DNA of 64,000 nucleotides from Bacteroidales bacterium (GTDB taxonomy: Bacteria; Bacteroidota; Bacteroidia; Bacteroidales; JAADJA01). This document shows, in pieces, positions 12,526 through 33,705 of this stretch (position 1 is the first letter of the stretch; each line of letters begins with the position of its first letter). The position numbers and the translations under genes are program-made. Below the pieces are notes generated by a model. The model did no database searches. It was not told where the DNA came from and saw only the letters and a list, made by a program, of their open reading frames with translations. The stretch spans positions 1,930-65,929 of the forward strand of contig JALSSR010000282.1 of NCBI GenBank assembly GCA_026984135.1. Direction: 5' to 3'.

Positions 12526-12557
12526 AACAAAATAATATTAATTAGTTATCAAAATTT

Positions 12558-13439: not shown

Positions 13440-13469
13440 CAGGAAAAACTCTACTTTTGTTATAAATTA

Positions 13470-13477
13470 CAAATATA
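13470..13477 (-). promoter_or_regulatory. Bacteroidota -7 promoter box (TAnnTTTG)
   Basis: The minus strand reads TATATTTG, 30 nt upstream of the ATG at 13439. Confidence 0.4.
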
Positions 13478-13579
13478 TGTGATTGATATTAACGTATGAA
13501 GTGTTAAATATGTTTTATGTTAACAATTTATTGTTAATGACTAAAATGATTAATAGTCTGTAAATCAATAAAAAAGAAA

Positions 13580-14812: not shown

Positions 14813-14939
14813 TGTATCTCATAGTTAAACTTATGCTGAACCGTAATGCCGGAATACAAAAAATCAAATAGAGTTAAGTCAGCCGGTTATGAAAAGTTAT
14901 AACGGTAAAGTTTATGCGTTTTAGTATAAAATATTTTTC

Positions 14940-14947
14940 TACTTTTG
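14940..14947 (+). promoter_or_regulatory. Bacteroidota -7 promoter box (TAnnTTTG)
   Basis: TACTTTTG, 52 nt upstream of the ATG at 15000. Confidence 0.4.
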
Positions 14948-14999
14948 AAGTTTATTCCAGTAGCCCTTTATTTTATAAAACAAAAGGAAACATTTGAAT

Positions 15000-18211: not shown

Positions 18212-18293
18212 TTGAAAACGATTTAAAAATTTCTATTACCGCAAAATTAATAATTAATTCCGATTTGCAACTTTCCTGTACAATAAAATGTCT

Positions 18294-18301
18294 TATTTTT
18301 G
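18294..18301 (+). promoter_or_regulatory. Bacteroidota -7 promoter box (TAnnTTTG)
   Basis: TATTTTTG lies inside the 5' end of the track ORF and 25 nt upstream of the ATG at 18327. This supports the downstream start. Confidence 0.45.
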
Positions 18302-18326
18302 CTTGCTAACAATTACTTATAAAAAT

Positions 18327-21300
18327 ATGAAACAATTAAACTCCATTACTTTAGCTATTATTCTAACTATTTTTACCGGATTAACCGTTGTTAATGCTCA
18401 AAAGAAAAACATACCTGAAAATATAAAATTATTACCTAAATTATCAACTGCAGATTCAATGGGGTTAATGAACCTTCCGAAATTGACTATGCCGGAGTGG
18501 ATGAAAGGCCCCAATGCTCCAATGTTGCCCGAAGAGGTTGACAATTCACAAAATATGTACTGGCGTCCTGTTTTTGCCCAGGTTGACCTTGAGTGTGGTC
18601 AGGCTTCGGGAATAGGTCTCGGATATACTTACGAGATAAACAGATTAAGGAATCTGCCGTCGAATGTTGCAGAAAATCAATATCCTACACATTATTGCTG
18701 GAACTGGGCCAATGGTGGTGAAGGGTGGTACGGTGTCAGCTATTTCCATAGCTTCGAGATATTGAAAACCGGAGGAACTCCCGATGTTAATACTTACGGA
18801 GGAATGTATGTGGGAAATTCGGACGAACGTACAAAGGTTTGGATGTCGGGCTATGACAAGTATTACGAAGCCATGCATAACAGAATCAACGAACTTTATC
18901 AGATAGATGTCTCAACGGAAGAAGGAATTCTGACTTTGAAAAACTGGATACATAACCATCTTGACGGCTCGGAAGTAGGTGGTGTGGCAAACTTTTATGC
19001 CAATGCTCCTTATGGAATGTCAACACTGCCCTCCGGTACTCCCGAAGCGGGGAAATATGTTGTCATAAGCTGGGGCGGTGCCAATCACGGTATGACTATC
19101 TGTGCCTATCACGATTCAATACGATGGGATTATAATGGTGACGGACAATATACAAATGATATTGATATTAATAATGATGGGGTTGTCAATGTTCGCGATT
19201 GGGAAATAGGAGGATTCAAATTTGCAAATACTTACAGCGGAGGACCCACTTTCGGCAATGACGGTTTCAGTTATATGACTTATAAATCGTGTGCCGACCC
19301 TTCGGAAAACGGCGGAATCTGGAATAATGCCGTACATGTGATTTATGCCAAAGAACAATGTGACCCTTTGTTAACTGCAAGAATAACTTTAAAACATACT
19401 TGCAGAAACAAAATTAAAGTCAGAATGGGATACTCTACCGATTTAAACGCTACCTCCCCGGAGTTTGTGCTTGAGTTTCCCATATTCAATTACCAGGGCG
19501 GATGTAAATATTTGCAGGGAGGAAATACCGAAGAGGATAAAACTTTGGAGTTCGGCCTCGACCTCACACCGTTTTTGAATATGCTCGGCTCCGGAACCCT
19601 AGCACGCTATTTTCTCCTTGTTAATGAGGACGATCCTTCAAATCAGTATGACGGTGAAATAGTTCAGTTTTCGATAATTGATTATACAAACGGAGTCAAT
19701 GAAATTGACTGCGGACAGTCAAATGTTACTTTGAACAACGGAGTGAATAAACTTTGGGTTGATCATACCGTAACTTTTGATGGTGTTGATATTTCTAACG
19801 ACGAACTACCCGAAGCAACTGTTTATGAACCGTATCAATCTCAAATTGAAGCGGATGGCGGTTCCGAACCCTATTATTTCGACTTTGATATGAATTTTGC
19901 GGAAACAGACTATACGGAAACATTTCCAAATATTAATCAGATATCAATAACTCCGGGCAATACAAACACCGGTTTTACCACGGTTAACCTTGATTTTGAT
20001 TTCCCGTTTTATGATGAACAGTTCAATCAGGTTAAGGTATATGTTGACGGCTTTATTTCACTTGGCGATTATATCGAATGGCCTTATCAGGTTTATGATT
20101 TTTTACTTTTTACAAAAAATAAGTTTATTGCCCCCTTCAAAACCGACTTGATAGTTGTTTCCTCTTATGGTGACGGTATGTGGTATGAAAGTGAAGACGG
20201 ATTTGCGACTTTCAGATGGAAAGCAAGCATTAACGGTCAGCAAAGTACTTCGGAAGTGAATTTTGCAGTAAGACTTTATGAAAACGGTGATATCAAATAT
20301 TACTACGGTGATGTTAACGATTTTTCAAATGTGGATTGGATTTCTGGCATCTCGGCAGGAAACAATATTTATTACCAGTTTACAGATGTTAACAATCATC
20401 AGTCAATACCTCAGAATTATGTTTGTGACCTTGTCGCCTCTCATATACCTCAGGGATTTACAATTTCTCCCGACGGTTTGTTCAGCGGACTTCCGGAATA
20501 TGTTTACGATAATTTTGAGGTTAGATTCAGGGTTAGCGACGGAAGAAACATTACTTCGACCAAACCGCTGTATTTTTCCACCGACGGAACCAATTTTATT
20601 GTTATTGACGATTATTCCGTTAATTCGGGCGGCAATGATATTATTGAGTTCGGCGAGTCTCCCGATTTATCGGTAACGTTGAGAAGTCTTGGCGAGCAGG
20701 TTATCTCAAATGTTAATATGTCAATATCAATAGATGATGAATATGTTGATTTGACCGATAGTACCGAATTTCTCGGTGATTTTGAACCTGAAGAGTCGAA
20801 AATATTTTCCGATGCCTTTTCATTTGATGTTTCCAATGCCGTCCCCAATAATTATCAGCTCGATTTTAATACCTTAACCACTGACGACGCAGGTGGTGAG
20901 TGGGAAAGCCATATTTATCTGACAGCTTATGCTCCTATAATAAATTCAACCGGAATAACCGTTGACGACGGAGCAAACGGTGGTCTTGATCCGGGTGAAA
21001 CGGCCGACCTGATTGTTAATTTGCGTAATTTGGGAGGAGCTACGGCAAATAATCTTGAGATACTGTTTTCTTCCGATGATCCGTATGTTACCATAAACAA
21101 TAATAGTGCAACATTGAGTTTTATTGAGCCCAATTCCAATGATGAGGTTGCCTTTAACGTGACTGTTTCGGATGATGTACCGATAGGCTATATTATCGGC
21201 TTTGATGTAGATGTAAGTGCTGATAATGATTACTTTAACGAAAGTCAGGCTTTTGTTGTGATAGGTTTGATAAACGAAAGCTTTGAAACGGGAGATTTTA

Positions 21301-22307
21301 CTGCAATGCCCTGGCAATTAGGAGGGAATGCAGATTGGGTTATTGACGATAATGAGGTTTATATGGGTAATTACAGCGCCCGATCCGGTGATATTGAAGA
21401 TGATGAAATTTCCTTTATGGAGATGGAAGTTTGCATACTTGTTAACGGAGAGGTAAACTTTGCTCATAAGGTTTCCAGTGAAGCAAATTATGATTTTTTG
21501 AAATTCTATATTGATGGCGCCGAAATGGGTGCCTGGGACGGTGAAGAGCCCTGGTCGCAGTCATCTTTCAACATTACTTCCGGAGTGCATACCCTCAGAT
21601 GGGCCTATGAAAAGGATTATTCGGTCAGCAACGGCTCCGATTGCGGCTGGGTTGACTATATAACACTTCCCCCGTTCGGGGATTCCGATCCTCAAATCGC
21701 CTACACTCCTGATATCATTACCGACTCTTTAATTACGGGAGACATTGCCTATGATACTATCGTGGTTTCCAATGTGGGTTCCGGCTCGGTTCTTTTCTCG
21801 GTGGAAATTGCCGATACTCTCGGAAATCCCGTGGAGTGGCTAACCCTTGACCAAATGGCAGGAGGTTTGAATCCGGGAACATCCGATACAATTGTGTCGC
21901 TTATCAATACAAACGGCCTTGAACAGGGCGATTATGTCGCGAAAATAATAATTACCGACCATTTGGAAAATGAATATGTGACTACTGTTTATCTTAATGT
22001 TGATCTCGGGACAGGAATTGATGAAAGGCCGGCACTTGTTTCAGGTTGCTATCCCAATCCTTTTAACAATTCTACAACCATTGCGTTTACACTTAATGAT
22101 CCGGCAAAAACGACGCTCGGTATTTTTGACAATAAAGGAAGCCTTGTGAAAATGCTTATAACAGGCGAAAATCTGGCTCGGGGCAATCATAAAGCGGTTT
22201 GGTATGCCAATGACAATTACGGAAAAAGGGTCGGAGCCGGATTGTATTATTACAGGCTGATTGCGGGTGATAATATCCATATAGGAAAAATGGTTGTTTC
22301 TGAATAA
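18327..22307 (+). CDS. large T9SS-secreted multidomain protein (possible papain-like cysteine peptidase N-domain, CARDB/Ig-like and jelly-roll domains, T9SS C-terminal sorting domain)
   Basis: Start moved to MKQLNSITLAIILTIFTGLTVVNAQ (signal peptide). The C-terminus GCYPNPFNNSTTIAFTL..GIFDNKGSLVKML..GLYYYRLIAGDNIHIGKMVVSE is a typical Por_Secre_tail. ECGQASG and GGANHGMTICAYHD could be a Cys/His dyad. GETADLIVNLRNLGG is CARDB-like. Confidence 0.85.
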   Translation: MKQLNSITLAIILTIFTGLTVVNAQKKNIPENIKLLPKLSTADSMGLMNLPKLTMPEWMKGPNAPMLPEEVDNSQNMYWRPVFAQVDLECGQASGIGLGYTYEINRLRNLPSNVAENQYPTHYCWNWANGGEGWYGVSYFHSFEILKTGGTPDVNTYGGMYVGNSDERTKVWMSGYDKYYEAMHNRINELYQIDVSTEEGILTLKNWIHNHLDGSEVGGVANFYANAPYGMSTLPSGTPEAGKYVVISWGGANHGMTICAYHDSIRWDYNGDGQYTNDIDINNDGVVNVRDWEIGGFKFANTYSGGPTFGNDGFSYMTYKSCADPSENGGIWNNAVHVIYAKEQCDPLLTARITLKHTCRNKIKVRMGYSTDLNATSPEFVLEFPIFNYQGGCKYLQGGNTEEDKTLEFGLDLTPFLNMLGSGTLARYFLLVNEDDPSNQYDGEIVQFSIIDYTNGVNEIDCGQSNVTLNNGVNKLWVDHTVTFDGVDISNDELPEATVYEPYQSQIEADGGSEPYYFDFDMNFAETDYTETFPNINQISITPGNTNTGFTTVNLDFDFPFYDEQFNQVKVYVDGFISLGDYIEWPYQVYDFLLFTKNKFIAPFKTDLIVVSSYGDGMWYESEDGFATFRWKASINGQQSTSEVNFAVRLYENGDIKYYYGDVNDFSNVDWISGISAGNNIYYQFTDVNNHQSIPQNYVCDLVASHIPQGFTISPDGLFSGLPEYVYDNFEVRFRVSDGRNITSTKPLYFSTDGTNFIVIDDYSVNSGGNDIIEFGESPDLSVTLRSLGEQVISNVNMSISIDDEYVDLTDSTEFLGDFEPEESKIFSDAFSFDVSNAVPNNYQLDFNTLTTDDAGGEWESHIYLTAYAPIINSTGITVDDGANGGLDPGETADLIVNLRNLGGATANNLEILFSSDDPYVTINNNSATLSFIEPNSNDEVAFNVTVSDDVPIGYIIGFDVDVSADNDYFNESQAFVVIGLINESFETGDFTAMPWQLGGNADWVIDDNEVYMGNYSARSGDIEDDEISFMEMEVCILVNGEVNFAHKVSSEANYDFLKFYIDGAEMGAWDGEEPWSQSSFNITSGVHTLRWAYEKDYSVSNGSDCGWVDYITLPPFGDSDPQIAYTPDIITDSLITGDIAYDTIVVSNVGSGSVLFSVEIADTLGNPVEWLTLDQMAGGLNPGTSDTIVSLINTNGLEQGDYVAKIIITDHLENEYVTTVYLNVDLGTGIDERPALVSGCYPNPFNNSTTIAFTLNDPAKTTLGIFDNKGSLVKMLITGENLARGNHKAVWYANDNYGKRVGAGLYYYRLIAGDNIHIGKMVVSE

Positions 22308-22400
22308 AAAGGCGACAGGATTTTCCCGCTATCCTATTTCTTTTGCTGTAACTGATGTTTTTTCTATGCTTTTTGTTTGTTGTAAATGGTGTGTGGGTTT

Positions 22401-22466
22401 CCCTTTGTGTTTTCTTTGAGCCTTAGTGTCTTTGTGGCTAATTTTCTGCTATTTTGCCACTAAGGC
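22401..22466 (-). repeat. ~66-nt hairpin repeat, copy B, overlapping the stop codon of the 22460-24082 ORF
   Basis: The minus strand reads GCCTTAGTGGCAAAATAGCAGAAAATTAGCCACAAAGACACTAAGGCTCAAAGAAAACACAAAGGG. With 2 flanking nt it forms an 11-bp perfect stem, GAGCCTTAGTG/CACTAAGGCTC. The TAG stop is repeat positions 5-7. Confidence 0.9.
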
Positions 22467-24082
22467 TCAATGACACTAAGAACCGCAATTTTTTCCGCTT
22501 CTATTTGCAGTGCCTCATCAAAGGTCATATAATACTGTTTTGCTATGGAGTCTGTTTTGGCAACTAAACTGCTGTTGTTCAGGATAATCTCTTTCTGCTT
22601 TCTTATGGCATTGTACTTTTTAAATTGTTCGGGATACTCTTTTTTGAATGAGTAATTAGCCTCCATTCGTATCATTTTTTCAACCGGTATGTTTTTTTTC
22701 TTTGCTTTTTCTTTCACCGATTTTAACCAATCGGGAGTGTTTTTTATCTTTTCTTCATAATATTCACCACCTTTTAGTACCATAAAATCTTTCTTTTCAT
22801 TGACCATAAATATATAATTTCCATCCTCTTTCAGTTTTTCACCGAGGGTCATATTTTTCTCTTTGGCTTTTTCGATTATTACATCAAACCACTTACTATC
22901 GTTACATATATTGTCAATAAATGAATACAATTTATCATATTCGGATGCAGGCGCATAAAGTTTGTAAGCTTTATTAAGAAAAGTCCAGTCGAATTTATAG
23001 AGAAAGCGCTTTGTTACCATCAGAAAGATAACATCCTGTTTTTCGATTTCCTTTTTAAGGTTCAGATCGGATGTTCGTGTTTTCTTGGAATAGCTATCGG
23101 GATAAACCAAAGCGTTGAAATACCAGAATGCCTCATTCTTGAACAGATGTTTGGGAATGCGGGTATTAAAGATGTTCCAGTAGTAACTGTCGGCAATTGT
23201 CAGCACCATTGGTCTTGTTTTTTGGGGATTATTCTCAAAACGGTAAACCGGATATGCCAGTTTCTGTTTTTCGGGTAAACGCCACAACAGATTGAGAGTG
23301 GTTGCCACGTCATAATCGGGGCGGCGGGCATGTTGTTCTATCTCCAGACTGTCAATATAAACATCGGGCATATCAATATGTCGCAGATTTTCAATGTATT
23401 TGATCAGAGAATCGGCTGCAAACGACATTCCGTAAATACTCCAGTGGATACCGTATTGGGGATAAATCGGATATTCGGTATTTCCTTTTAATTGATGGAA
23501 ATAATTTTCAAGATCAATATACCTGACATTGTACTCATCAGCCTTTTGCAGGAAAACCTTCGAATTTGTCGTTGATATGCCCTCTTTTAAAAAACGGTCG
23601 GGAATATATTCGGGATTGACGGATGCTTTTCCGGGTTCGAAAACCAGAATGAGGTCAATGTTTTTTTCTTTTTTGAGATAAGTCTGAAGATATTTCAACA
23701 TTCTCATTTTTTTGTCAATCAACTCTTTTCCGATGTAATCACCACCGACATATTCCCTGATGTAATCATATTCGAAAAGTTGATCGTCTTTACCAATTAC
23801 CACTCCTTCGGCGTGGGGTACTCTGTAAAAGCTGAAGTCTATCTGATTTGTAAGTCTGACCAGAAAGTCACGGAATCCGATATGGTCTTCAATATAATTG
23901 TTGAATTTGGATTGAAAATCTCCCGAATACCAGCTTTTCCGGGTTAACTTGGGTTTTTCTGCCAACACGAAACTGCCGTCCAGTTTTTTGACTTTAACAA
24001 AAGGATACTCCTTTTGTATGCCCGGTAAAACCAGAAGAGCAAGCATAAATATAACCAATATTTTTTCCGTCGTTTTCATCAA
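22460..24082 (-). CDS. membrane-anchored AlgJ/AlgX-like partner of the MBOAT O-acyltransferase (hypothetical), with C-terminal triple repeat
   Basis: 540 aa with an N-terminal TM helix. The 4-nt ATGA overlap with the upstream MBOAT gene is the usual AlgI/AlgJ-type arrangement. YGIHWSIYG resembles the DxHW motif but lacks the Asp. Three ~29-aa repeats lie at aa 397-533. Confidence 0.5.
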   Translation of the reverse strand: MMKTTEKILVIFMLALLVLPGIQKEYPFVKVKKLDGSFVLAEKPKLTRKSWYSGDFQSKFNNYIEDHIGFRDFLVRLTNQIDFSFYRVPHAEGVVIGKDDQLFEYDYIREYVGGDYIGKELIDKKMRMLKYLQTYLKKEKNIDLILVFEPGKASVNPEYIPDRFLKEGISTTNSKVFLQKADEYNVRYIDLENYFHQLKGNTEYPIYPQYGIHWSIYGMSFAADSLIKYIENLRHIDMPDVYIDSLEIEQHARRPDYDVATTLNLLWRLPEKQKLAYPVYRFENNPQKTRPMVLTIADSYYWNIFNTRIPKHLFKNEAFWYFNALVYPDSYSKKTRTSDLNLKKEIEKQDVIFLMVTKRFLYKFDWTFLNKAYKLYAPASEYDKLYSFIDNICNDSKWFDVIIEKAKEKNMTLGEKLKEDGNYIFMVNEKKDFMVLKGGEYYEEKIKNTPDWLKSVKEKAKKKNIPVEKMIRMEANYSFKKEYPEQFKKYNAIRKQKEIILNNSSLVAKTDSIAKQYYMTFDEALQIEAEKIAVLSVIEP

Positions 24083-25500
24083 AACCTGAAATAAATAAAG
24101 GGGTTAAAACCCGATGAAGTAATATATCCGAGACTTATAATAAAAAGCAATACAGCTATCAAAAAGAACAGAACAAGTGTTGCGGCATTTTTATTTTTTT
24201 CATATAATTTCATTTGCCACTTTTCAATTTTCTTAAATCCTCCGAAGAAAGAAAAGAAAAAGGCAACCGCCATAATGAACCAAAATTTAGTATCGAAATA
24301 ATGACCGTCATATTTAAAATCAGCTGCAAACATATTATGAAAATAATCACCTGCCTGTGTCATACTCTCAACCCTGAAAAGGACCCAGCCCACAAGGGTA
24401 ATAAAGAATGTTATAACGATACTCGGTATTTTGCCTATTTTTTTATAAAATTTCAACAGAAAAAGTTTATCCATAACGAGAAACAAACCGTGAAAAGCAC
24501 CCCAGATGACAAAGTTCCATGCAGCACCGTGCCACAAACCCGAGATGAGGAATACTACCCAAAGATTGAAATAGAGACGCTTTGTGGAAACCCTGTTTCC
24601 TCCGAGCGGAATGTAAAGATAATCGCGCATCCACCTTCCGAGGGTTATGTGCCAACGCCTCCAAAATTCGGAAATGCTTTGGCTGATATACGGATTGTTG
24701 AAGTTTTCGGGGAAGTCGAAACCTATCATTCTGCCTATGCCTATTGCCATATCGGAATAACCCGAAAAGTCGAAATATATTTGAAACGCATACGCCGTAA
24801 TGCCTACCCAGGCAGTTAAAGTGTTGAATTCCATCTGCCCCGTCCCGAAGATCATATCTACCTGCTCACCGAGTACGTTAGCTATGAGAACCTTTTTTGC
24901 AAGTCCGACGGTAAATCTGAAAAAACCTGTGAGCCTGTTATTGTTATTTTCATTCCAACTGCGGTCTTCAATCTGGTTTGCTATTTCGTTGAACCTGACA
25001 ATAGGACCGGCTATAAGTTGCGGAAACATAAGTATGTAAAGGGCAAAATCGGCAGGTTTTTTCAACGGATGATACACACCGCGATACACATCCACGGCAT
25101 AGGTCATCTTTTGAAAAGTGAAAAACGAAATCCCGATTGGAAGTGCCACGGCAGTCCATTTTAACCGGTGCATACCTACGGCGGCAAGTATCTCGTTTAT
25201 ATTTTCAACAAAAAAGTTTGCATATTTAAAATAGGCAAGCAGCCCCACGTTCAACAGAACGGAAGTGGTAACGAGCAATATTTTCTTCTTACCCGTTGAT
25301 TCGTTCATCACCTTTACAAGATAGAAATCAATTATTATGGATCCAAGGACGATGAAGATAAAATCGGGTGCTCCCCAGGCATAGAAGACGATACTCGCTA
25401 TAAGAGCAAATGAATTTTTCAGCTTTTTCGGGATAATAAAATATATTATCAGGAAAGCAGGTAAAAAGTATAAAAGAAATATGCTGCTGCTGAATACCAT
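24079..25500 (-). CDS. MBOAT family O-acyltransferase (AlgI/DltB/PatA type)
   Basis: 473 aa, polytopic. GYSDMAIG, FWRRWHITLGRWMRDYLYIPLGGNR and SGLWHGA are hallmark MBOAT blocks that include the catalytic His. Confidence 0.9.
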   Translation of the reverse strand: MVFSSSIFLLYFLPAFLIIYFIIPKKLKNSFALIASIVFYAWGAPDFIFIVLGSIIIDFYLVKVMNESTGKKKILLVTTSVLLNVGLLAYFKYANFFVENINEILAAVGMHRLKWTAVALPIGISFFTFQKMTYAVDVYRGVYHPLKKPADFALYILMFPQLIAGPIVRFNEIANQIEDRSWNENNNNRLTGFFRFTVGLAKKVLIANVLGEQVDMIFGTGQMEFNTLTAWVGITAYAFQIYFDFSGYSDMAIGIGRMIGFDFPENFNNPYISQSISEFWRRWHITLGRWMRDYLYIPLGGNRVSTKRLYFNLWVVFLISGLWHGAAWNFVIWGAFHGLFLVMDKLFLLKFYKKIGKIPSIVITFFITLVGWVLFRVESMTQAGDYFHNMFAADFKYDGHYFDTKFWFIMAVAFFFSFFGGFKKIEKWQMKLYEKNKNAATLVLFFLIAVLLFIISLGYITSSGFNPFIYFRF

Positions 25501-25543
25501 ATGCTACTTAACGAGTATAAAAATTATTATTTCAGAGAGGCTG

Positions 25544-25551
25544 CAAAAGTA
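25544..25551 (-). promoter_or_regulatory. Bacteroidota -7 promoter box (TAnnTTTG)
   Basis: The minus strand reads TACTTTTG, 44 nt upstream of the MBOAT ATG at 25500. Confidence 0.4.
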
Positions 25552-25583
25552 TTGTTCTTTTTGGTTTTAAACAAATGATGATT

Positions 25584-25591
25584 TACTTTTG
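25584..25591 (+). promoter_or_regulatory. Bacteroidota -7 promoter box (TAnnTTTG)
   Basis: TACTTTTG lies inside the track ORF's first 8 codons and 7 nt before the ATG at 25599. This would imply a near-leaderless transcript. Confidence 0.35.
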
Positions 25592-25598
25592 CAGCAAA

Positions 25599-26501
25599 AT
25601 GAAAAAGATATATCTCAACATACTCATTTATACATCTATTGTTTTCCTTTTTATTTATCTGTATAAGTTTGATTATTTTGCATTTGATGAAGTTGAATTT
25701 GTTTTATGGCCATTGGTTGTCTCAACAATATTACTTTGGGGTGGATATTTGCTGAGCACTTTAAGTTGGTATAATATCCTGAACCGGTATGACTTTACAG
25801 TAACTGTTAAGCAGGCGATTATCTCACATGGGTTGGCAATATTTGCAAAATATATTCCCGGGAAAATATGGGTAATACTTGGACGGGCGGGATATTTTTC
25901 CAAGTACGGATATTCATTAAAAACAACATCTTTTCTATCTCTAAAGGAGCAATTGATTTATGTTTGGGAAGGATTGGTTATAAGTACTGTTCCGATGCTT
26001 TTCATCTACGGATTTACTCTTTTCGCGCTAATGGTTTTATTTATAACACTGTTTTTAACATTTTTGCTCTTTTCCGAAAAGTTTCATAACCGTTTATTAA
26101 TAATATTTACAAAAATTACAAAAAAGGAATTAGACCTTCCTTTTATGAAATTCAATGATAGTTATAGTATAATGCTATATGTTTTTGTTTACTGGGTTGT
26201 TTGGTTATTTGCTTTCGGTTTTTTTGTGTTTTCATTTTATAGAGATGCGGATTTTCGGGTTTCGTTTGCTTTTCCTTTGAGTGTAACATTAGGTTTATTG
26301 GCTATTATCTTCCCGGGCGGAATTGGTGTGAGGGAAGGAATTATGAGCGGTTATTTGGTAATATCTGGAATACCTCTTGACATAGCAATTGTTATTTCGG
26401 TGTATGCAAGACTGTGGTTTGTATCGGGTGAAATTTTTATTTTTCTTGTTGCTCTTATAATGTCAAAAAGAATACGGAAAAAGTCGAAATCAGGCGGTTA
26501 A
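25599..26501 (+). CDS. flippase-like polytopic membrane protein (UPF0104 / LPG_synthase_TM-type)
   Basis: Start moved from 25575 to MKKIYLNIL. Multi-TM protein with FPGGIGVREG, the conserved motif of this family. Confidence 0.65.
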   Translation: MKKIYLNILIYTSIVFLFIYLYKFDYFAFDEVEFVLWPLVVSTILLWGGYLLSTLSWYNILNRYDFTVTVKQAIISHGLAIFAKYIPGKIWVILGRAGYFSKYGYSLKTTSFLSLKEQLIYVWEGLVISTVPMLFIYGFTLFALMVLFITLFLTFLLFSEKFHNRLLIIFTKITKKELDLPFMKFNDSYSIMLYVFVYWVVWLFAFGFFVFSFYRDADFRVSFAFPLSVTLGLLAIIFPGGIGVREGIMSGYLVISGIPLDIAIVISVYARLWFVSGEIFIFLVALIMSKRIRKKSKSGG

Positions 26502-26509
26502 TTTAGTAT

Positions 26510-27613
26510 TTATTTTTGTAGCCTTTCATTATCCTGTATATCCATCCACATAGCAAAAAAAAGTGATTGTAAACCCGTGATTATTAGAAAAATAAAGAAA
26601 ATAATATTTTGTTGTGGCGTTGATTCGCCAATTTTAAAAAGGTTTATGATTAAACTGATTAGAAAAGGAATAGAGGCTAAAAGCAAAACAATTCCCAAGT
26701 GATACAATAGAAAGAGAGGATGAAAATCTTTAAAGAGATACTTTATCCACATTCGCTTGAAAAATGATTTAAACAATAAAAGACTAATAGGCAGAATAAC
26801 TTTTAATACTTTCATTTTTGATTTTTCTCCAACATTATAAACCGGTTTTATTGTAACTTCTTTAAGCGTACAAAAAGAGATATTCAACTTAACAAGCAAA
26901 TCATTGGGCATACCGTAAGTTGGATAAATATCGTATATGTTGATACTGTTGAGAGCGTTTTTTGAAATTGCAGTATATCCTGTTTGGGTATCGGAGACGT
27001 GCCAATAGCCTGAAGCAATTTTAGTAAGAATTGAAAGTATTGAATTACCGAGGAATCGTGTTTTTGGAATCAGATCAAAAGCACTTGCGTGTTTTAATCT
27101 GTTGCCTTTAACATAATCAATATTTTCTTCCACAACAGGCATGCAAATCGACTCAAGCTCATTCGGGTCCATTTGTCCGTCACCCGCCATAACGGCAGTA
27201 CAGTCAATGCTATAATCTTTACACCATTTATATCCACGCGCAATGGCAGCTCCAACTCCCCCGTTTTCCAAATGATCTATCAATATTATTCTGTTATTTT
27301 CAGGATTTTTGTTTGCAACCTTCGAAGGGATAAATTTTTCAATTTCTTTCCTGTTCTTTTCATTTACAATCTGCTCGGCAGTATTATAGATATTTTTTGT
27401 AATCGCAACATTTTTTTTAGAGATGATAAGGGGGGTCTTGTTTTCGGGTTTATCAAAATATGATTTGACGACATCTGATGTTTTATCTTTAGAGAGGTCA
27501 TTTACAATAATAATCCTGTCAACAAAGTCGGGCATCGTTTCAACCACCATACCGATTTGATTTTCTTCATTATAAGCAGGTACAACTACTGCAATGGTTT
27601 TATTATTTAGCAT
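26510..27613 (-). CDS. polyprenyl-phosphate glycosyltransferase, GT2 (GtrB/DPM1/ArnC-like)
   Basis: 367 aa. IAVVVPAYNEENQI, IIVNDLSKDKT, GGVGAAIARGY, VMAGDGQMDP, and two C-terminal TM helices as in GtrB. 11-nt overlap with the upstream ORF. Confidence 0.8.
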   Translation of the reverse strand: MLNNKTIAVVVPAYNEENQIGMVVETMPDFVDRIIIVNDLSKDKTSDVVKSYFDKPENKTPLIISKKNVAITKNIYNTAEQIVNEKNRKEIEKFIPSKVANKNPENNRIILIDHLENGGVGAAIARGYKWCKDYSIDCTAVMAGDGQMDPNELESICMPVVEENIDYVKGNRLKHASAFDLIPKTRFLGNSILSILTKIASGYWHVSDTQTGYTAISKNALNSINIYDIYPTYGMPNDLLVKLNISFCTLKEVTIKPVYNVGEKSKMKVLKVILPISLLLFKSFFKRMWIKYLFKDFHPLFLLYHLGIVLLLASIPFLISLIINLFKIGESTPQQNIIFFIFLIITGLQSLFFAMWMDIQDNERLQK

Positions 27614-29225
27614 TTTTAGCCCTCTTTCTTTTTTCTAAATTTTGATTATATAACCATTCAGCATCTATATTAATCATACTGTCAACAGAAATTTTTCTTT
27701 TTTCAGCTTTCTGTCTTATAAAATTATATAATTTTATGTTTGATTTAAAATTATGTTTTATGTAATTGATTGAATCTTCTCTGGTTTTTAATTTTTCAGA
27801 TAACTGTTTAAGTTTTTCTCCTTCTAAAATATCTTTCTTGGAATAGTAAATTCCTTTATGAGCCATTTCATAGCTTGGCATAACCAAATAATTTTTATAC
27901 TCGGGATCTGCTTCGGTTTTTAAAAAATTCAACCAATATGATTCTTTTGTCATTTTGATTGAATCAATTAACCAGTTCTTATATTGCCATGTTTGAAATA
28001 AATTAAGAAAAATAAGAAACAGAAAAACGAAATAAATGAAAGACTTTAAATATTTTTTACGATGGTTAACAAATTTTATAAAAGCGGCATAAGGGATAGC
28101 AAGGATTGCATAAATATCGATCATCGGCCGTTGGCTGAAACTAGAGCCATACCACCATGACCACCAGCAAGACATCACATAAATGAATAAGGGAACGAAT
28201 ATGGCTATTGGAATGGTTGATTTACGTAAATATCTCCATAAAAAAGGAATCCCGGCAATAGCAAAAATCATTATTGGGGTGTAAAGAAGCCACCCTTTTC
28301 TGTAGCTGAATAGGACATTAATTATTTGTGGATTATTAAAGAAAAACGAAGCGTCATTACCATAACTCCAAAAAAGGAAAGAGCCTGCAACTGTTTTCCA
28401 GTACAGAAATTGAGGAATCCAAACTAAAATAAAAATAAAAACCATTATTAAGACAAGGTCGATTTTACTAAAAAAGAAAACAATTCTTTCCTTTAGGTCT
28501 TTCCATGTGATAACACCCCATAAAACAAAAATTATTAATAATAACAAGTTTGTTGGCCTGATTAAAGTAATGAGGCCAAGAAGGAAACCAATAAATGCTG
28601 AGTTTTTTTTGTTAGGATTTCTATACCAGATAATTGTGGTGTAAATAAATACTGATATTAATGAGAAGCTATAAATGTGTGATGTTAAATGAGCTGTTGC
28701 ATAATACAACAGATTTGTTCCCAGAACAATTGAGATAAGTGTAAAAGAGGTTATGTATTCGTTAAAAAATAGTAGTAGTATTTTTCGTAGGAAAAGTAAA
28801 CCAATAAAAAGATAAAATAGCATACTTAACATCAATCCAATTGCATAAACCATTGAGTATCCGTCAGTTTTTTGTCCGGTAATAAATGCCGTGATATGAG
28901 AAACTACAAAAAACGGGCTAATTAAATAAGTAACACCCATTGTAGTTGGTAACAAATAGTTTCCTGTTGGGGTTTTTTTTGGTAAATTATGGAATCTGCT
29001 TTTCAAAGCCATATCTGTTGAGTTATAAAAACTCATTTTAAGATCCTTATAAACAAAAGTGAGTGGCAGATATCCATAATATGATAAACCGTCATTACCA
29101 AAAATCAGATATTGTTTCTTCCAGTCTTGCTGCTTTATGTCAACAAAAATAACAGTTAATAACAATAACCACACTGTAATAAGTGAAATTGACCGCCGTT
29201 TTATGTTAATAAAATTAAAAATCAT
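27603..29225 (-). CDS. polytopic GT-C-like membrane glycosyltransferase (ArnT/PMT-like), hypothetical
   Basis: The track ORF starts at 29276 and overlaps the VTC gene. I prefer the ATG at 29225 (MIFNFINIKRR), 13 nt after the VTC stop. About 12 TM helices, a first extracytoplasmic loop with GNDGLSYYGYLP, and a soluble C-terminal tail. The family call is based on architecture and on pairing with the GtrB-like GT2. Confidence 0.5.
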   Translation of the reverse strand: MIFNFINIKRRSISLITVWLLLLTVIFVDIKQQDWKKQYLIFGNDGLSYYGYLPLTFVYKDLKMSFYNSTDMALKSRFHNLPKKTPTGNYLLPTTMGVTYLISPFFVVSHITAFITGQKTDGYSMVYAIGLMLSMLFYLFIGLLFLRKILLLFFNEYITSFTLISIVLGTNLLYYATAHLTSHIYSFSLISVFIYTTIIWYRNPNKKNSAFIGFLLGLITLIRPTNLLLLIIFVLWGVITWKDLKERIVFFFSKIDLVLIMVFIFILVWIPQFLYWKTVAGSFLFWSYGNDASFFFNNPQIINVLFSYRKGWLLYTPIMIFAIAGIPFLWRYLRKSTIPIAIFVPLFIYVMSCWWSWWYGSSFSQRPMIDIYAILAIPYAAFIKFVNHRKKYLKSFIYFVFLFLIFLNLFQTWQYKNWLIDSIKMTKESYWLNFLKTEADPEYKNYLVMPSYEMAHKGIYYSKKDILEGEKLKQLSEKLKTREDSINYIKHNFKSNIKLYNFIRQKAEKRKISVDSMINIDAEWLYNQNLEKRKRAKNAK

Positions 29226-29238
29226 TATTAATATTGTT

Positions 29239-29943
29239 TTACAAAGCAAGACTTTGCCGGAATATTTCAATACCATTTACATATTTTGAACTTTTAGTCA
29301 TTCTAAATGGAAAGTAATTTGTAATCAGGCTTGCATTATTATCTTCTTCATAGCCGTATTTTAGCTCTACTATTACTGAACTATTGTCCGATTTCATTCT
29401 TAAAAAAGAGTTAAAGGTGCGGTCGACGTGAATATATTTCAATTGATAATCAATAGTTGTTCGGAATAATTTATCGAATGATTGAAAGTATTTTCGCGAA
29501 TATCTGTTTATCAATGCCGGTTCGACTGTAAACAGTTCTTCCCTAACCCATTCAGGTAAGTCCGATTTTTCAAAAACCGCCTTCAGAATATTATGATTGA
29601 AGTTTTTATCTAAAGTAAATCCCGAGAGGGGAAACGAAAGTTTGGTACCTGTTGCACCCGATTTCAGTTTGAATTCAAGCACCGGTTTTTCAACTTTTCC
29701 GAAAAGTTCGCCGTACCATCTTATTCTTATTTTTTTTCGGGTACTCTTTCCAACAACATTATCCAAAAAAAATGTAAGTTTGGGTGTATCAAGATAGATG
29801 TTATTGATAAATCTTTGATGGAAAATTTGTGTAAATCTTGCCGGATTGTGTTTTATGTATGTTTCAGCTCTTACGGGAGAAAAGTTTTGTATGAAAAACT
29901 TTCTCTCATATCTGCTGTTTTTAACTGTTGCCTCTCCTGACAT
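29239..29943 (-). CDS. VTC-domain protein (triphosphate-tunnel / polyphosphate-polymerase-type)
   Basis: Start moved to ATG 29943 (MSGEATVKNSRYERKFFI), 10 nt after the DUF4956 stop. The YERKF first strand, IRIRWY and VIVELKY basic/acidic strands are typical of CYTH/VTC tunnels. No signal peptide. Confidence 0.7.
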   Translation of the reverse strand: MSGEATVKNSRYERKFFIQNFSPVRAETYIKHNPARFTQIFHQRFINNIYLDTPKLTFFLDNVVGKSTRKKIRIRWYGELFGKVEKPVLEFKLKSGATGTKLSFPLSGFTLDKNFNHNILKAVFEKSDLPEWVREELFTVEPALINRYSRKYFQSFDKLFRTTIDYQLKYIHVDRTFNSFLRMKSDNSSVIVELKYGYEEDNNASLITNYFPFRMTKSSKYVNGIEIFRQSLAL

Positions 29944-29953
29944 TGTCCGCCTA

Positions 29954-30637
29954 TTAATAGGTTTTGTTATCAATGAAAGATATTGAAACCGAATCATTGA
30001 GTTTTTGCAGTTCCTGTTTGCAGGATTGCAGTTTCTCTGTTTTATCAATATCTACAAGGAATGAAGCTTCAATAAGTTCTTTGTTTTCATCAAAACGTTT
30101 CAGCTCGGCAGCTTTGAAATACTTTTTAATGATAGCTGTAATATCGTTCAATTGTAAGTCAACCGGGGAGTTGCTTGAGATATTCAAAAAGAGGTTTTGC
30201 TTTGTGTTTTTTCCACGAAGTAAATATCTGATCCACAGTATAATCATCATTACGATAAATGCGGCAACAACTATAAAGCGCTGACTGGCACCCAAACCTA
30301 AACCAATTGAGATGGCAAAAAACAGATATGCAAGCTCTTCCGGTTCTTTTATAGCCGCTCTGAAACGTACTATTGACAATGCACCTACCAGACCTAACGA
30401 AAGCGCAAGTGACGATTTTACAATTGAAATGATAAGCATTGTTGTGAAAGAGATCATCAGGAAGTTGTAGGCAAACATTTTGCGGTTCGACAAGCTGTTG
30501 GCACATTTTGAATATGTATATTCAAGAATAAGTGACAAAATAACTATCAACAACGAGTTGATGAGAAAATCGGGAAGAGATATCTGAGCACTCTCCGTAA
30601 TCATAAACTTTTGAAACAAACTCCATTTATCCTGCAT
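29954..30637 (-). CDS. DUF4956-like membrane protein
   Basis: 227 aa with 3-4 TM helices, including GALSIVRFRAAIKEPEELAYLFFAISIGLGLG, then a soluble C-terminal domain. It sits between the CotH and VTC genes, as I recall for this family. Confidence 0.6.
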   Translation of the reverse strand: MQDKWSLFQKFMITESAQISLPDFLINSLLIVILSLILEYTYSKCANSLSNRKMFAYNFLMISFTTMLIISIVKSSLALSLGLVGALSIVRFRAAIKEPEELAYLFFAISIGLGLGASQRFIVVAAFIVMMIILWIRYLLRGKNTKQNLFLNISSNSPVDLQLNDITAIIKKYFKAAELKRFDENKELIEASFLVDIDKTEKLQSCKQELQKLNDSVSISFIDNKTY

Positions 30638-30671
30638 AATTGTTTATTTTAACTGTAAAAAAACGGCAAAA

Positions 30672-33600
30672 TTACTTTTTATAAAATATATCGGCAACTT
30701 TTTTATTAGTTCCGCTGATTAATGTGTCATTAAGTATTAATTGCGACCCCTCTTCAATGAGGTGTAACGTGTTGTTATTGTGATATATTAATAAGTGAGT
30801 TATGATTGTTGCTTCTCCGAATTCAGGTTTTTTACGGAATGCGGTCATCCCGTAATTACAATTGTGAACCGAAGAGTTAAAAACTTTCACAACCGACTTA
30901 TCTTTTGAAGCAATACCGATATTGCAATTTGAGATGTCGGTATTTTTTACGATGAGATGCGAGTCTTCTCCGCCACTGATTCCTTTGTCCTTTGCCCCGA
31001 AGACTTTTATCGAATCAATTGTGATCTCACTTCCCGAAAAATCAATGGCATCATTCAGTATATTTGTGAAAGTGATTCCGGATGCTTTTCCGGTACAAAA
31101 ATCGGAATCGAAAGCATCGGAAAAGATATTGTCAAACCTGCAACCGGTAACATTAAAATCGGAACGTACTATGTTAATTGCATCTTCGCAGTTATTATTT
31201 TGAATATTGCTGTTTGAGATGTCAACGTCCGATTCATAAAATGTTACGCCTCCGGTTAATATCCAGCCTTTATAATTCAGGGTATTCAGATTATCAAACA
31301 CGGCATAATTTATTTTCGACCTCTCATCAGCCTGCAAAACCGTAAAACCGTTTGCCGTACCGTCAGAAGAGTAAATCTTTACGGGCTTATTTTCAGTTCC
31401 CTCCAAAAAAACCGGCGACCAGGATATTAAAAATGCGCTGTCGGTAAAATCTATTTTTGTTCCCGGTTTAAAAATTACCCTGTATCCTTTCGGAATAATG
31501 ACAGGCGCTGTTATCTTTTGTTCTCCCGAAAATAATATTTCTTTTCCCTCAATTTTAATAAATGCAGTGTTTTTATTAACCGCATATTCTTCTAACAACT
31601 CCTGCCTCGGAGACCACGCTTTCGGATATGGCCATTGGTAAATGGGACTTGTGTATATTTCATCATCACCATAGACCATATAAAACAAAAATGCGGCATT
31701 TGTGTCGGTTGGTATTGTATATGCTTTTTGTGAAAAAACATAACAAGGCACTTCAATTTTAGGGTCTGTTCTAAAAAAAGAGGTTATTCTTTTAGCTTTT
31801 CTCCCTGTCCCCAGAAGTATAACAGGCTTACTGTAAAAATTGTATATATCAATGTATGCCGTATCGTCAGAGATAAATGAAGTGTAGGTTTTAACATAAC
31901 GGTTTGGAGGTATTACAGTTTGTGTAGTGTCAATCTCGGCATTATCAAGAATACTTTTTTTAAAGACTTTTTCGTAGGGAGCTGTATTTTGCAATTTACT
32001 TTTAAGTTTATTAAGATAGGTTCTGATCTTTTTTGCATCGTCAAGTAAAAATGTAGAATCAAAATCATAACCCTTAAATTCTTTTGCTATCTCAGATTCA
32101 TAAAGATTGATTTCATTTTTATATCTGTTCAGGAGGTTTTCTATAAAATCCTTTTTTGAATATTTTTCAAGATAATGCAAATATTTATTGTTAAACACAG
32201 AATCTTTAAAAGGGAAAAAGGGGAAACGCTCCATATTACTTTTCGTTTTGAGTTCGTTAGAAATACCTAAATCGGGTACTTTAAATGGGTTGTAAGGCCC
32301 TTCTCCTGTATAGCAGTCGAATATGACAGGCTCGAGTTGTGATAAAACGGGGTCGTAATAATAACGCCGGTTGTGCCAGGCAATGGAATGATAGCTTTTT
32401 GTTACATTCATTAATGCATAATACTTTGCAAATTTATCAATGTTAAATAATTCGGAAACACCGGTTTTGAAATATGAATATTGCCAAACCAGATTTTGCG
32501 CTATTAAAAATTCCTTTTTCAGGGTAGGGTTGTTCATTGTCCGGTTCAATTTAAAAGGTAAGATCTCGGCAGCAGCATATACCGGCATTTTCTTATATAC
32601 TCCTGTCTGGCTTATCCTTATCCATTCCCAGAATCCGTCTTCGTCAAGTTTTAATATAGGCCCCTCTCTCCTTTTTCTCGACTCTACAAGTTGCTTGTCG
32701 AAGTGCTCCTCATAAGCATAAATACCCAGACTTTTATTGTTAAGATAAACGGGTATAAAGCCATATCTTGTAGTTAGCAAATTCTCATCTTCAAAAAGTT
32801 TGTGTGCAAGCCATTCATTAACGAAGAAGCGTGTTGCCGGAGTTTGGATTGAAAACGTTCTCATCCCTCTCCACGAATATTTTTTACTGAGCTTTATGCG
32901 AAATGACCACTTTATTCCTTCAAGATGATCGAGCCAGTCGCCTTTCAGCCTTACTTTTGCTTTCATCATCTTGTCACCCGAAAATAGTATTGCCCTGACC
33001 CAGTCATCATCCGTTGATTCAAGTACACCGTTTTCAAATGCTCTGTTGCGGATTTTATAAAGCTTTTCCATATAGACACTGTCAATAAAAATCTTTAACG
33101 GCTCGTCGAAATCAAATTCAGGATAATCAATGGTTTTTCTTTTTATTATAGTATAATCATCAATATAAACAGGTTTTTTTGAAATGTTCCAGAAATAGAT
33201 TTTCATATCTCTGCCTCTCATTTTTTCAGGAATCTGAAATTCAACTGCAAGATGCTTCCAACCGGCTGAATCAACCTCAAAGTATTTTTTTTGAGTTTTA
33301 TAGAAGAATTTAGGATCCTTGTCTGTTGCTACCAGAATAGCCCCGTTACCTCCATCAGGTATATATTCCCAAGCGTCAATAAAGTAAAAGTCACCCGGTT
33401 TTGAGTTTTTGATAATATCTGAAAATCCAAATTCTTTATCAAGTTTTAATGAATATTTTCCTGTCCTGGAATGAATATCGCTTCTTAAAGCTCCGTCGTT
33501 AAAAGTAATGGAAGAGTCCGTTTCCGAGATAAAATATTTTCCATCAGGGGTTAACAACTCCATTCTACAAATAACCGGTTCATCATATTTCGCTCCGGGA

Positions 33601-33689
33601 TTATTGTTAAAGTACCCGCATCCCGGGGCCAAAACCATTGCTATTAAGCCGGTTATCAAAAAAGTGATATTAAAAAATTTATTTTTCAT
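30672..33689 (-). CDS. CotH kinase-family lipoprotein with N-terminal CBM-like domain and C-terminal parallel beta-helix repeats
   Basis: 1005 aa. Lipobox ..MVLAPGC. CotH blocks KVRLKGDWLDHLEGIKWSFRIKL, VNEWLAHKLF, PVYLNNKSLGIYAYEEH and YHSIAWHNRRYYYDP..VIFD. The tail carries repeated N/D-rich PbH1-like turns (NNNCEDAINI.., DAFDSDF.., NDAIDFSGS.., ISNCNIGIAS..). Confidence 0.8.
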   Translation of the reverse strand: MKNKFFNITFLITGLIAMVLAPGCGYFNNNPGAKYDEPVICRMELLTPDGKYFISETDSSITFNDGALRSDIHSRTGKYSLKLDKEFGFSDIIKNSKPGDFYFIDAWEYIPDGGNGAILVATDKDPKFFYKTQKKYFEVDSAGWKHLAVEFQIPEKMRGRDMKIYFWNISKKPVYIDDYTIIKRKTIDYPEFDFDEPLKIFIDSVYMEKLYKIRNRAFENGVLESTDDDWVRAILFSGDKMMKAKVRLKGDWLDHLEGIKWSFRIKLSKKYSWRGMRTFSIQTPATRFFVNEWLAHKLFEDENLLTTRYGFIPVYLNNKSLGIYAYEEHFDKQLVESRKRREGPILKLDEDGFWEWIRISQTGVYKKMPVYAAAEILPFKLNRTMNNPTLKKEFLIAQNLVWQYSYFKTGVSELFNIDKFAKYYALMNVTKSYHSIAWHNRRYYYDPVLSQLEPVIFDCYTGEGPYNPFKVPDLGISNELKTKSNMERFPFFPFKDSVFNNKYLHYLEKYSKKDFIENLLNRYKNEINLYESEIAKEFKGYDFDSTFLLDDAKKIRTYLNKLKSKLQNTAPYEKVFKKSILDNAEIDTTQTVIPPNRYVKTYTSFISDDTAYIDIYNFYSKPVILLGTGRKAKRITSFFRTDPKIEVPCYVFSQKAYTIPTDTNAAFLFYMVYGDDEIYTSPIYQWPYPKAWSPRQELLEEYAVNKNTAFIKIEGKEILFSGEQKITAPVIIPKGYRVIFKPGTKIDFTDSAFLISWSPVFLEGTENKPVKIYSSDGTANGFTVLQADERSKINYAVFDNLNTLNYKGWILTGGVTFYESDVDISNSNIQNNNCEDAINIVRSDFNVTGCRFDNIFSDAFDSDFCTGKASGITFTNILNDAIDFSGSEITIDSIKVFGAKDKGISGGEDSHLIVKNTDISNCNIGIASKDKSVVKVFNSSVHNCNYGMTAFRKKPEFGEATIITHLLIYHNNNTLHLIEEGSQLILNDTLISGTNKKVADIFYKK

Positions 33690-33697
33690 TGCGGCTG

Positions 33698-33705
33698 CAA
33701 AAGTA
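33698..33705 (-). promoter_or_regulatory. Bacteroidota -7 promoter box (TAnnTTTG)
   Basis: The minus strand reads TACTTTTG, only 8 nt upstream of the CotH ATG at 33689 (near-leaderless if real). Confidence 0.35.

Follow-up and report, generated by a model that had tools for sequence, protein, structure and literature searches.

A mosaic Bacteroidales locus joining a CotH-like/DUF4956/VTC cassette to glycosyl and acyl modules, a candidate system for envelope glycan modification

What might a gene block accomplish that sets a VTC-domain tunnel enzyme and a DUF4956 membrane protein beside a CotH-like surface lipoprotein, glycosyltransferases and acyltransferases? The question is posed by a 64-kb stretch of DNA, analysed whole and called the window below, from a metagenome-assembled contig of a Bacteroidales bacterium (GenBank assembly GCA_026984135.1, contig JALSSR010000282.1, positions 1,930 to 65,929; k141_509869 of ENA ERZ27262647), whose nearest relatives are Bacteroidales and Bacteroidota metagenome-assembled genomes (MAGs). 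A first, sequence-only reading had singled out five packed minus-strand genes and treated them as one fused unit. The coordinates of these genes and the gaps between them hold exactly (CotH-DUF4956-VTC-GT-C-GT2, spaced by +34, +10, +13 and -11 nt), and the unit itself proves larger: the envelope cluster comprises eight genes at 22460-33689, to which an LPG_synthase_TM gene and an MBOAT/AlgX gene pair also belong. The answer favoured here, with a probability of roughly 0.4, is that 22460-33689 is a mosaic locus that modifies an envelope glycan outside the cytoplasm through three separable modules, namely the CotH-like/DUF4956/VTC trio, a glycosyl module and an acyl module. The argument for it starts from what was observed: the layout of the genes, the families and folds of their products, the residues kept in them, their topology and the patterns in which they co-occur. 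Chance open reading frames (ORFs) can be set aside, since each gene has hundreds to thousands of homologues: at least 8000 relatives were found for DUF4956, 1663 for the CotH-like protein and 1041 for the GT-C protein, and those of VTC fall into 3036 clusters at 50% identity.

The DUF4956-VTC pair and its CotH-like partner

The VTC-domain protein (234 aa; 29239-29943, minus strand) consists of the VTC domain only and matches Pfam PF09359 with an E-value of 7.9e-25 (88.2 bits against a gathering cut-off of 23). It has no transmembrane (TM) or other hydrophobic segment and no export signal. Its start is taken as the ATG at 29943, the longest ORF opening with a TTG at 30048. Searches of the PDB with single VTC, CotH and GT2 sequences returned nothing useful and profiles were needed; a profile of 66 diverse bacterial VTC homologues matches the catalytic domains of yeast Vtc2 (1e-8) and Vtc4 (1e-7). 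Specifically, window residues K15, R73/R75 and E90/K92 align with Vtc4 K200, R264/R266 and E279/K281, while K101 and S219/K220 align with Vtc4 K294 and S457/K458, the Vtc4 numbers being derived from the offset of the 8i6v alignment. All of these mapped tunnel and catalytic residues are invariant across the 66 sequences. The protein is plausibly an active tunnel enzyme, and its putative product is polyphosphate (polyP).

Directly upstream, the DUF4956 protein (227 aa; 29954-30637, minus strand) matches Pfam PF16316 at 1.4e-15 (57.9 bits against a cut-off of 30.6); Pfam searches place all four of the families proposed at the outset (CotH, DUF4956, VTC and GT2). Its AlphaFold2 model, with a predicted local distance difference test (pLDDT) value of 73, comprises four TM helices followed by a C-terminal beta-alpha-beta-beta-alpha-beta domain (residues 147-223). 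In a Foldseek search with this model the C-terminal domain alone is matched, to ACT, PII-like SbtB and CutA folds, with TM-scores of 0.5-0.7 normalised to target length. The most conserved stretch covers residues 64-117 and includes R91, R93, K97, E100 and E101. The architecture looks MgtC-like, as judged from a weak Pfam MgtC match (E 0.12, below significance), the name YhiD given to some homologues by the Joint Genome Institute (JGI) and the CDD assignment of a streptococcal homologue.

The sequence-only reading had proposed that VTC and DUF4956 form a bacterial analogue of the eukaryotic VTC complex. The pairing itself stands, VTC lying nearly always beside DUF4956, and kinship with the yeast membrane subunits does not. 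A DUF4956 family profile finds no match in the PDB at E<=10, VTC subunits included, and the 50 Foldseek matches listed include no VTC chain. On these grounds homology of DUF4956 to the yeast VTC channel is rejected, and a bacterial "VTC complex" can be one by analogy only. Two variations on the family occur among the loci compared below, which are designated by L numbers. A second DUF4956 paralogue lies near the DUF4956-VTC pair in two of them (L021:3019-3714 and L071:14479-14796), and another encodes a 447-aa DUF4956 protein (L084:8627-9970), extended at its N-terminus by a stretch with weak similarity to a 3-keto-disaccharide hydrolase domain (E 3.5e-4).

The genomic partners of VTC were traced by scanning one genome per species with the VTC alignment, which yielded at least 584 relatives. 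The best 80 loci were analysed, annotated with hidden Markov models built for the purpose and by all-against-all clustering, and 33 of them, with at least 6 kb on both sides, form a flank-controlled subset. DUF4956 is present in 71/80 loci, most absences falling at contig edges; where it adjoins VTC, the two genes share a strand in 66 of 67 cases and are typically some 10 nt apart. The large CotH-like/beta-helix protein is found in 46/80 loci. Further companions are a calcineurin-like phosphoesterase with a type IX secretion system (T9SS) sorting tail (22/80), a Dpm1-like GT2 (19/80), an ~180-aa lipoprotein of no Pfam family (18/80), AlgX (12/80), MBOAT (10/80) and the window-type GT-C (6/80). 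Within 6 kb of VTC in the flank-controlled subset, the large CotH-like protein occurs in 21 of the 33 loci, the window-type GT-C in 2 and LPG_synthase_TM in none. DUF4956 and VTC form the core pair, the CotH-like protein is a frequent partner, and the glycosyl and acyl modules are separable add-ons.

Two of these companions have no homologue in the window. The metallophosphoesterase lies mostly on the same strand as CotH, DUF4956 and VTC (L017, L018, L020, L022, L031, L034, L035, L040, L042, L044, L046, L052, L058, L060, L061, L066, L092 and others). The small lipoprotein stands directly before DUF4956 or after VTC, for example at L069:7993-8538 and in L034, L039, L044, L050 and L055.

The CotH-like protein (1005 aa; 30672-33689, minus strand) opens the trio. 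Its core, residues 246-546, matches Pfam PF08757 at 6.4e-11 (42.8 bits against a cut-off of 23.8). As first proposed, it is an extracytoplasmic lipoprotein by its N-terminal export signal and lipobox: a signal peptide leads to LAPGC with Cys24, this Cys is conserved in at least 90% of homologues, and the single hydrophobic segment is N-terminal. Of the flanking domains claimed alongside, the beta-helix tail is borne out by PF13229 matches in most homologues, while the carbohydrate-binding-module (CBM)-like head is only weakly supported (CBM61 at E=0.12; PF02018 in two homologues).

Alignment of the core by hhalign with Bacillus cereus CotH (5jd9) covers 275 columns and window residues 231-520, with an E-value of 3.3e-4 and a probability of 38%. 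The 5jd9 sequence was obtained with a B. subtilis CotH query, which matches it at 4.5e-141. Both hhalign and an independent hmmalign alignment put the catalytic Asp of Bacillus CotH (D228 in B. subtilis) on window H434; the B. subtilis D228Q mutant is inactive. H439/N440 and D458 align with B. subtilis H232/N233 and D251, and among VTC-linked relatives N440 is kept in 43/45 and D458 in 42/45. The expectation that both enzymes retain their catalytic residues thus holds for the whole VTC tunnel and for the Asn and Asp of the CotH-like protein, and fails at the catalytic Asp. Invariance of the Asn and Asp that bind metal, and of many further residues of the core, argues for a working active site, which looks functional but non-canonical. 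On a speculative note, H434 could act as a base or as a phospho-acceptor.

Two CotH types can accompany one VTC. In L062 the VTC gene stands between the genes of a divergent CotH-like protein, which has Gln in the column of the catalytic Asp, and of a canonical CotH (PF08757 at 1.9e-60), the two encoded at L062:2152-4044 and L062:4774-6378, and a canonical CotH with the catalytic Asp kept adjoins VTC there as well as in a further locus (L083:11426-12073). A single 1110-aa ORF from a high-GC organism (P0480) runs from a CotH-like/beta-helix part into VTC and was considered as a fusion clue; it was set aside as a probable error of gene calling rather than a genuine fusion, since its linker looks like read-through.

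Glycosyl and acyl modules, transcription units and mosaic assembly

Downstream of VTC lies a polytopic protein (540 aa; 27603-29225, minus strand), whose start is taken at Met18 (29225) of a 557-aa longest ORF, as the gene callers choose. It has no Pfam match even at E<=10, PMT_2 included; its NCBIfam match, NF047440 (the putative glycosyltransferases LA_3751/LA_3752 of Leptospira), reaches 1e-12 and 47.7 bits against a cut-off of 200. The earlier GT-C-like call is upheld by structure. An AlphaFold2 model built from 60 homologues has a pLDDT of 93 and a predicted TM-score (pTM) of 0.90, and its best 28 Foldseek matches in the PDB are all GT-C enzymes, most with a probability of about 1.0, including ALG12, PglB, STT3, AglB, ArnT, ALG9/3/6, AftA, Pmt4 and EmbA/B. 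In addition, D45, in the first loop just after TM1, is invariant in the 60 homologues. By these matches the fold of the protein is GT-C, and the family to which it belongs, distantly LA_3751/LA_3752-like, has no curated sequence model.

The overlapping GT2 gene (367 aa; 26510-27613, minus strand) belongs to PF00535 Glycos_transf_2 (5.3e-16), with NCBIfam matches to AglJ, PpgS and dolichyl-phosphate (Dol-P)-hexose transferases. The best PDB match of its small-family profile is the Pyrococcus Dol-P-Man synthase 5mlz (2.3e-6). An invariant GDGQMDP motif and three C-terminal hydrophobic segments complete the GtrB/DPM1-like assignment, which agrees with the first one. The catalytic domain is split by a Lys/Asn/Glu-rich insertion of ~55 residues (residues 54-107), present in 4/5 relatives and absent in L049. 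The third component is divergent: the LPG_synthase_TM protein (300 aa; 25599-26501, plus strand), MprF-flippase-like, matches PF03706 at 4.4e-9 and has eight TM segments. It accompanies GT-C and GT2 every time in L003-L005 and L093-L095, and the three genes also occur together without the trio in Tenuifilum thalassicum and several MAGs. Since they travel together without the trio, they are best described as a three-component glycosylation module, in which LPG_synthase_TM, as a putative flippase, would take the role of GtrA. The outer-face glycosylation logic first proposed for the GT2 and GT-C pair is sound.

The acyl module consists of an MBOAT acyltransferase of DltB/AlgI-like type (473 aa; 24079-25500, minus strand), with matches to PF03062 at 2.1e-33 and to TIGR04091 DltB at 1.5e-47, the latter below the cut-off, and of an AlgX-type SGNH-like O-acetyltransferase (540 aa; 22460-24082, minus strand), with a match to PF16822 ALGX at 1.2e-8 and an N-terminal hydrophobic segment that is a signal or an anchor. 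AlgX is paired with MBOAT in 10-12 other loci. In L059 and L087 the pair is embedded in the operon, with CotH on one side and DUF4956-VTC on the other; in L035, L048 and L061 it immediately precedes DUF4956-VTC, in the same orientation.

An exact 12-mer, TACTTTTGCAGC, forms a promoter-like box that the parts of the block share. It contains TAnnTTTG, the Bacteroidota -7 consensus, and has just 3 copies in the 64-kb window, where one mismatch allowed gives 6 matches against 0.28 expected. One copy (33694-33705, minus strand) lies 4 nt upstream of the CotH ATG. The other two face away from each other within the 98 nt that separate the divergently transcribed MBOAT and flippase-like genes, one (25540-25551, minus strand) 39 nt upstream of the MBOAT ATG and the other (25584-25595, plus strand) 3 nt upstream of the LPG_synthase_TM ATG at 25599. 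Because an identical box stands at each 5' end, the block reads as three predicted transcription units: CotH-DUF4956-VTC-GT-C-GT2, the flippase-like gene, and MBOAT-AlgX. The box lies 3-4 nt from the ATG in two of the cases, which suggests near-leaderless mRNAs. It recurs upstream of MBOAT in the relatives L003, L004 and L014, before DUF4956 in L018 and L023, and in L013 just 3' of VTC at the truncated end of the contig, where MBOAT is expected. A scan for sigma-70 promoters and terminators was uninformative: its counts equalled those in shuffled sequence, and the kind of promoter that it models is not that of Bacteroidota. About 130 nt 3' of the AlgX stop, a hairpin with a T-run (22315-22329, minus strand) resembles a terminator and would close the MBOAT-AlgX unit; such sites are no commoner in this region than in shuffled sequence.

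Base composition and synteny describe the block as a mosaic. The GT-C gene has the lowest G+C content (GC) of the 45 window genes (0.295, z -2.4), and the LPG_synthase_TM, GT2 and VTC genes also lie low (z -1.1 to -1.5; GC at third codon positions, GC3, near 0.30). The CotH and DUF4956 genes are average, and MBOAT and AlgX lie above the window mean. The AT-rich character ascribed to the five-gene region by eye therefore applies to its GT and VTC part and not to CotH and DUF4956. Lower GC and the comparison with relatives suggest that the GT block may have been acquired horizontally; flanking repeats that would mark its insertion were sought, and none was convincing.

One chromosomal site displays the modules in different combinations. 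The TPR-PAS histidine kinase, PNP, CinA and PBP1A genes (9397-17324 in the window) are syntenic in the window, L010 and L094. At this site L010 carries CotH-DUF4956-VTC-small GT2-MBOAT-AlgX and L094 carries GT-C-x-GT2-flippase-MBOAT-AlgX without the trio; the window holds both gene sets, with the CotH...AlgX block inverted relative to L010. L014, whose VTC is 80% identical, has MBOAT directly after VTC, L005 and L095 contain the GT module alone, and L006-L009 contain DUF4956-VTC alone. The five-gene combination is lineage-specific, confined to the window itself and one 75%-identical relative, so that the idea of a single fused set does not survive: its co-occurrence is limited to the nearest relatives, and trio and GT module are independent. 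Besides the window type, two further PMT_2-type GT-C families adjoin the trio in other lineages; three GT-C families and Dpm1-like GT2s thus neighbour the trio in different lineages, which suggests non-orthologous replacement.

Between PBP1A and the block, the window also encodes a 1339-aa T9SS-type protein (18288-22307) and a 189-aa ORF. Further along, a single 1276-aa protein (41679-45509, plus strand) unites domains of an MMPL transporter, an acyltransferase and a methyltransferase.

A proposed mechanism and its rivals

Within the mosaic envelope-glycan reading, each module would bring an activated group across the inner membrane. In the glycosyl module, GT2 would load a sugar onto polyprenyl phosphate, LPG_synthase_TM would flip the lipid and GT-C would transfer the sugar on the outer face, steps drawn from the GtrABC, ArnC/ArnT and CsbB/GtcA/YfhO paradigms. 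In the acyl module, MBOAT would carry an acyl group across and its AlgX-type partner would attach it to the glycan, by the precedent of AlgI/AlgJ/AlgX and PatA/PatB. The trio is the least certain module. VTC would make polyP from nucleoside triphosphate while docked on DUF4956, which would anchor the enzyme and possibly pass or gate the chain, and the surface CotH-like lipoprotein would use the polyP donor to phosphorylate the glycan. Every catalytic activity in this scheme, together with the export of polyP, the sharing of one target and the identity of that target, is what we infer from the families, folds and gene arrangements described above.

The topology suits such a division of labour: hydropathy gives the CotH-like and AlgX proteins N-terminal export signals and VTC none. 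The case for polyP export is one of association, because the operons of DUF4956-VTC repeatedly encode secreted proteins as well, and two of these have phosphoryl-transfer folds. Export of polyP to an extracytoplasmic phosphotransferase is plausible, with some support from the secreted metallophosphoesterase and the lipoprotein found as partners in other loci, yet unlikely on present evidence. Equally improbable is the fuller form of the idea, in which DUF4956 and VTC would be a non-homologous counterpart of eukaryotic VTC that moves polyP across the inner membrane, the His-variant CotH-like enzyme would transfer phosphate to a surface glycan, perhaps by way of a phosphorylated His, and secreted metallophosphoesterases would trim or recycle the polyP.

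Several points weigh against a glycan-modifying locus fed by exported polyP. The DUF4956 protein resembles MgtC, which is known as a regulator and not as a channel, it has no detectable homology to the VTC channel, and the TM part of its model is only moderately confident. Where canonical CotH has its catalytic Asp, the CotH-like protein has His, as do 37/37 of its close homologues and 43/45 VTC-linked relatives, and the link to the solved CotH is weak, two CotH-family profiles having failed to reach 5jd9 by hmmsearch. DUF4956-VTC occurs without CotH within 6 kb in 12 of the 33 full-flank loci. A shared target is conjectural, since GT-C/GT2/flippase and MBOAT/AlgX occur without the trio, and no polysaccharide synthase or acceptor gene was identified in the window. 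From the literature, the authors of a Streptococcus intermedius preprint suggest that polyP may stay in the cytoplasm (10.1101/2024.04.20.589940), and a search turned up no functional study of DUF4956, of the CotH/VTC trio or of bacterial VTC-domain proteins.

The separability of the modules leads to the rival that survives best, a somewhat unlikely one, in which they are adjacent and functionally unrelated, with different targets, envelope genes having gathered at a recombination-prone site by PBP1A. Each module occurs without the others (L094, L005, L095, L006-L009, L010), the window-type GT-C and LPG_synthase_TM lie within 6 kb of VTC in just 2/33 and 0/33 loci, the GT block has a GC below that of its flanks, and MBOAT follows VTC directly in L014. 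However, MBOAT-AlgX and non-orthologous GT-C/GT2 pairs recur beside or inside the trio operon in many lineages, the identical 12-mer box heads all three units, and the Gram-positive trio is likewise found in polysaccharide loci, all of which counts against this rival.

The second rival concerns the trio. VTC and DUF4956 could be a polyP or phosphate-homeostasis device of the cytoplasmic face, without export, in which the MgtC-like protein with its ACT sensor would regulate the polymerase or be regulated by polyP, beside a CotH-like protein that is a polyP-independent glycan-binding or processing protein or a pseudokinase. This too is doubtful. It draws on the MgtC-like architecture with its ACT domain, MgtC having been linked to ATP synthase and PhoR regulation (10.1101/2024.04.20.589940), and on the missing catalytic Asp, the DUF4956-VTC pairs without CotH and the lack of VTC-channel homology. 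Yet the great majority of operon partners are secreted or lie at the surface, the CotH-like protein and the metallophosphoesterase being the two with phosphoryl-transfer folds, and the invariant Asn, Asp and core residues of CotH argue for a working site.

Peptidoglycan as the common target, with MBOAT/AlgX O-acetylating MurNAc in the manner of PatA/PatB and the other modules decorating the sacculus, is very unlikely: the block does lie next to PBP1A in the window, L010 and L094, and MurF-Alr genes are neighbours in 29/80 loci, but PBP1A is near the cluster in only 4/80 distant loci, no peptidoglycan-specific domain was found in any module, and the proximity of PBP1A and MurF-Alr is probably plain synteny, as these lie on other strands or as separate genes in close relatives.

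No experimental function was found in the literature search for the numerous bacterial VTC-domain proteins, and the source of the phosphoryl donor of bacterial extracytoplasmic kinases is an open problem. If polyP were exported, it would supply phosphoanhydride energy to ATP-free compartments and add a third activated-group route to polyprenyl-phosphate sugars and MBOAT acyl transfer, changing the view of envelope phosphorylation and of bacterial polyP biology. If it is not, the locus is an ordinary mosaic of envelope-glycan modification genes. The locus and its relatives offer a testable set of components: a tunnel enzyme, a membrane partner, a surface CotH-like enzyme and a secreted phosphoesterase. 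The cluster is thereby a useful setting, though not the only one, in which to ask whether polyP exported by bacteria drives phosphorylation beyond the cell.

Relation to known systems

The two gene modules outside the trio have familiar counterparts. The glycosyl module is built like GtrA/GtrB/GtrC, ArnC/ArnT and CsbB/GtcA/YfhO: a GT-C and a small polytopic protein, the putative flippase, form a conserved set with a Dpm1/GtrB-type GT2 whose C-terminus carries TM helices. It differs in that the flippase candidate is LPG_synthase_TM and not GtrA, which is found neither in the annotation of the locus nor in those window genes that were scanned, and in that its GT-C has no Pfam model. The acyl module resembles AlgI/AlgJ/AlgX and PatA/PatB in pairing an MBOAT with an exported AlgX-type SGNH-like protein. 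Unlike the alginate system, it has no synthase gene close by, for alginate or otherwise, and the annotation of the locus lists no AlgF.

For the individual proteins of the trio, the relation to solved or named families is one of shared cores in new settings. The yeast VTC complex (3g3q, 7ytj, 8i6v) and the window protein have in common the Pfam VTC family, the Vtc4 tunnel residues and the pairing with a membrane protein, whereas the window enzyme lacks an SPX domain and a TM region fused to the catalytic domain, and its DUF4956 partner is unrelated in sequence and fold to Vtc1-type (DUF202) subunits. DUF4956 in turn shares with MgtC/SapB/YhiD an N-terminal TM bundle and a C-terminal ACT-like domain; it has four predicted helices against five, is always coupled to a VTC enzyme, and its match to that family lies below significance. 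The Bacillus CotH Ser kinase (5jd9) and the CotH-like protein are tied by the Pfam match above the gathering score and by the conserved His-Asn and metal-binding Asp. Unlike the spore-coat kinase, the window protein is extracytoplasmic and lipidated, has carbohydrate-type flanking domains and carries His for D228, and its substrate is probably not a spore-coat protein.

The nearest known system is the cassette of Gram-positive pel operons, downstream of which cotH, a polyphosphate polymerase, DUF4956 and DUF4832 form a conserved accessory set (Whitfield et al. 2020, 10.1101/768473, PMC7112168). The S. intermedius preprint describes the trio from AlphaFold2 models and found none outside pel operons (10.1101/2024.04.20.589940), and the NELoc-2 locus of Clostridium perfringens also holds VTC-domain, membrane and CotH genes. 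The trio had been put forward as uncharacterised, which is right in that no functional study was found and needs amending in that it had already been described beside pel operons in these two papers. In both settings three contiguous genes, next to polysaccharide genes, encode a CotH-like protein predicted to be secreted, a VTC enzyme that keeps its catalytic residues and is predicted to be cytoplasmic, and an MgtC-like protein with four TM helices and an ACT domain. The window differs in lacking pelDEADAFG and DUF4832, as judged from Pfam annotations within 10 kb on either side and from those further window genes that were scanned; in its Bacteroidales host; in its GT-C/GT2/flippase and MBOAT/AlgX neighbours; and in a CotH-like protein of ~1000 aa whose head is CBM-like and whose tail is a beta-helix, in place of FN3, and which has His for the catalytic Asp. 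The trio is widespread in Bacteroidota and not confined to Gram-positive pel operons. What the locus adds is a Bacteroidota variant of a known, uncharacterised cassette together with its genomic context, one not unique to the window.

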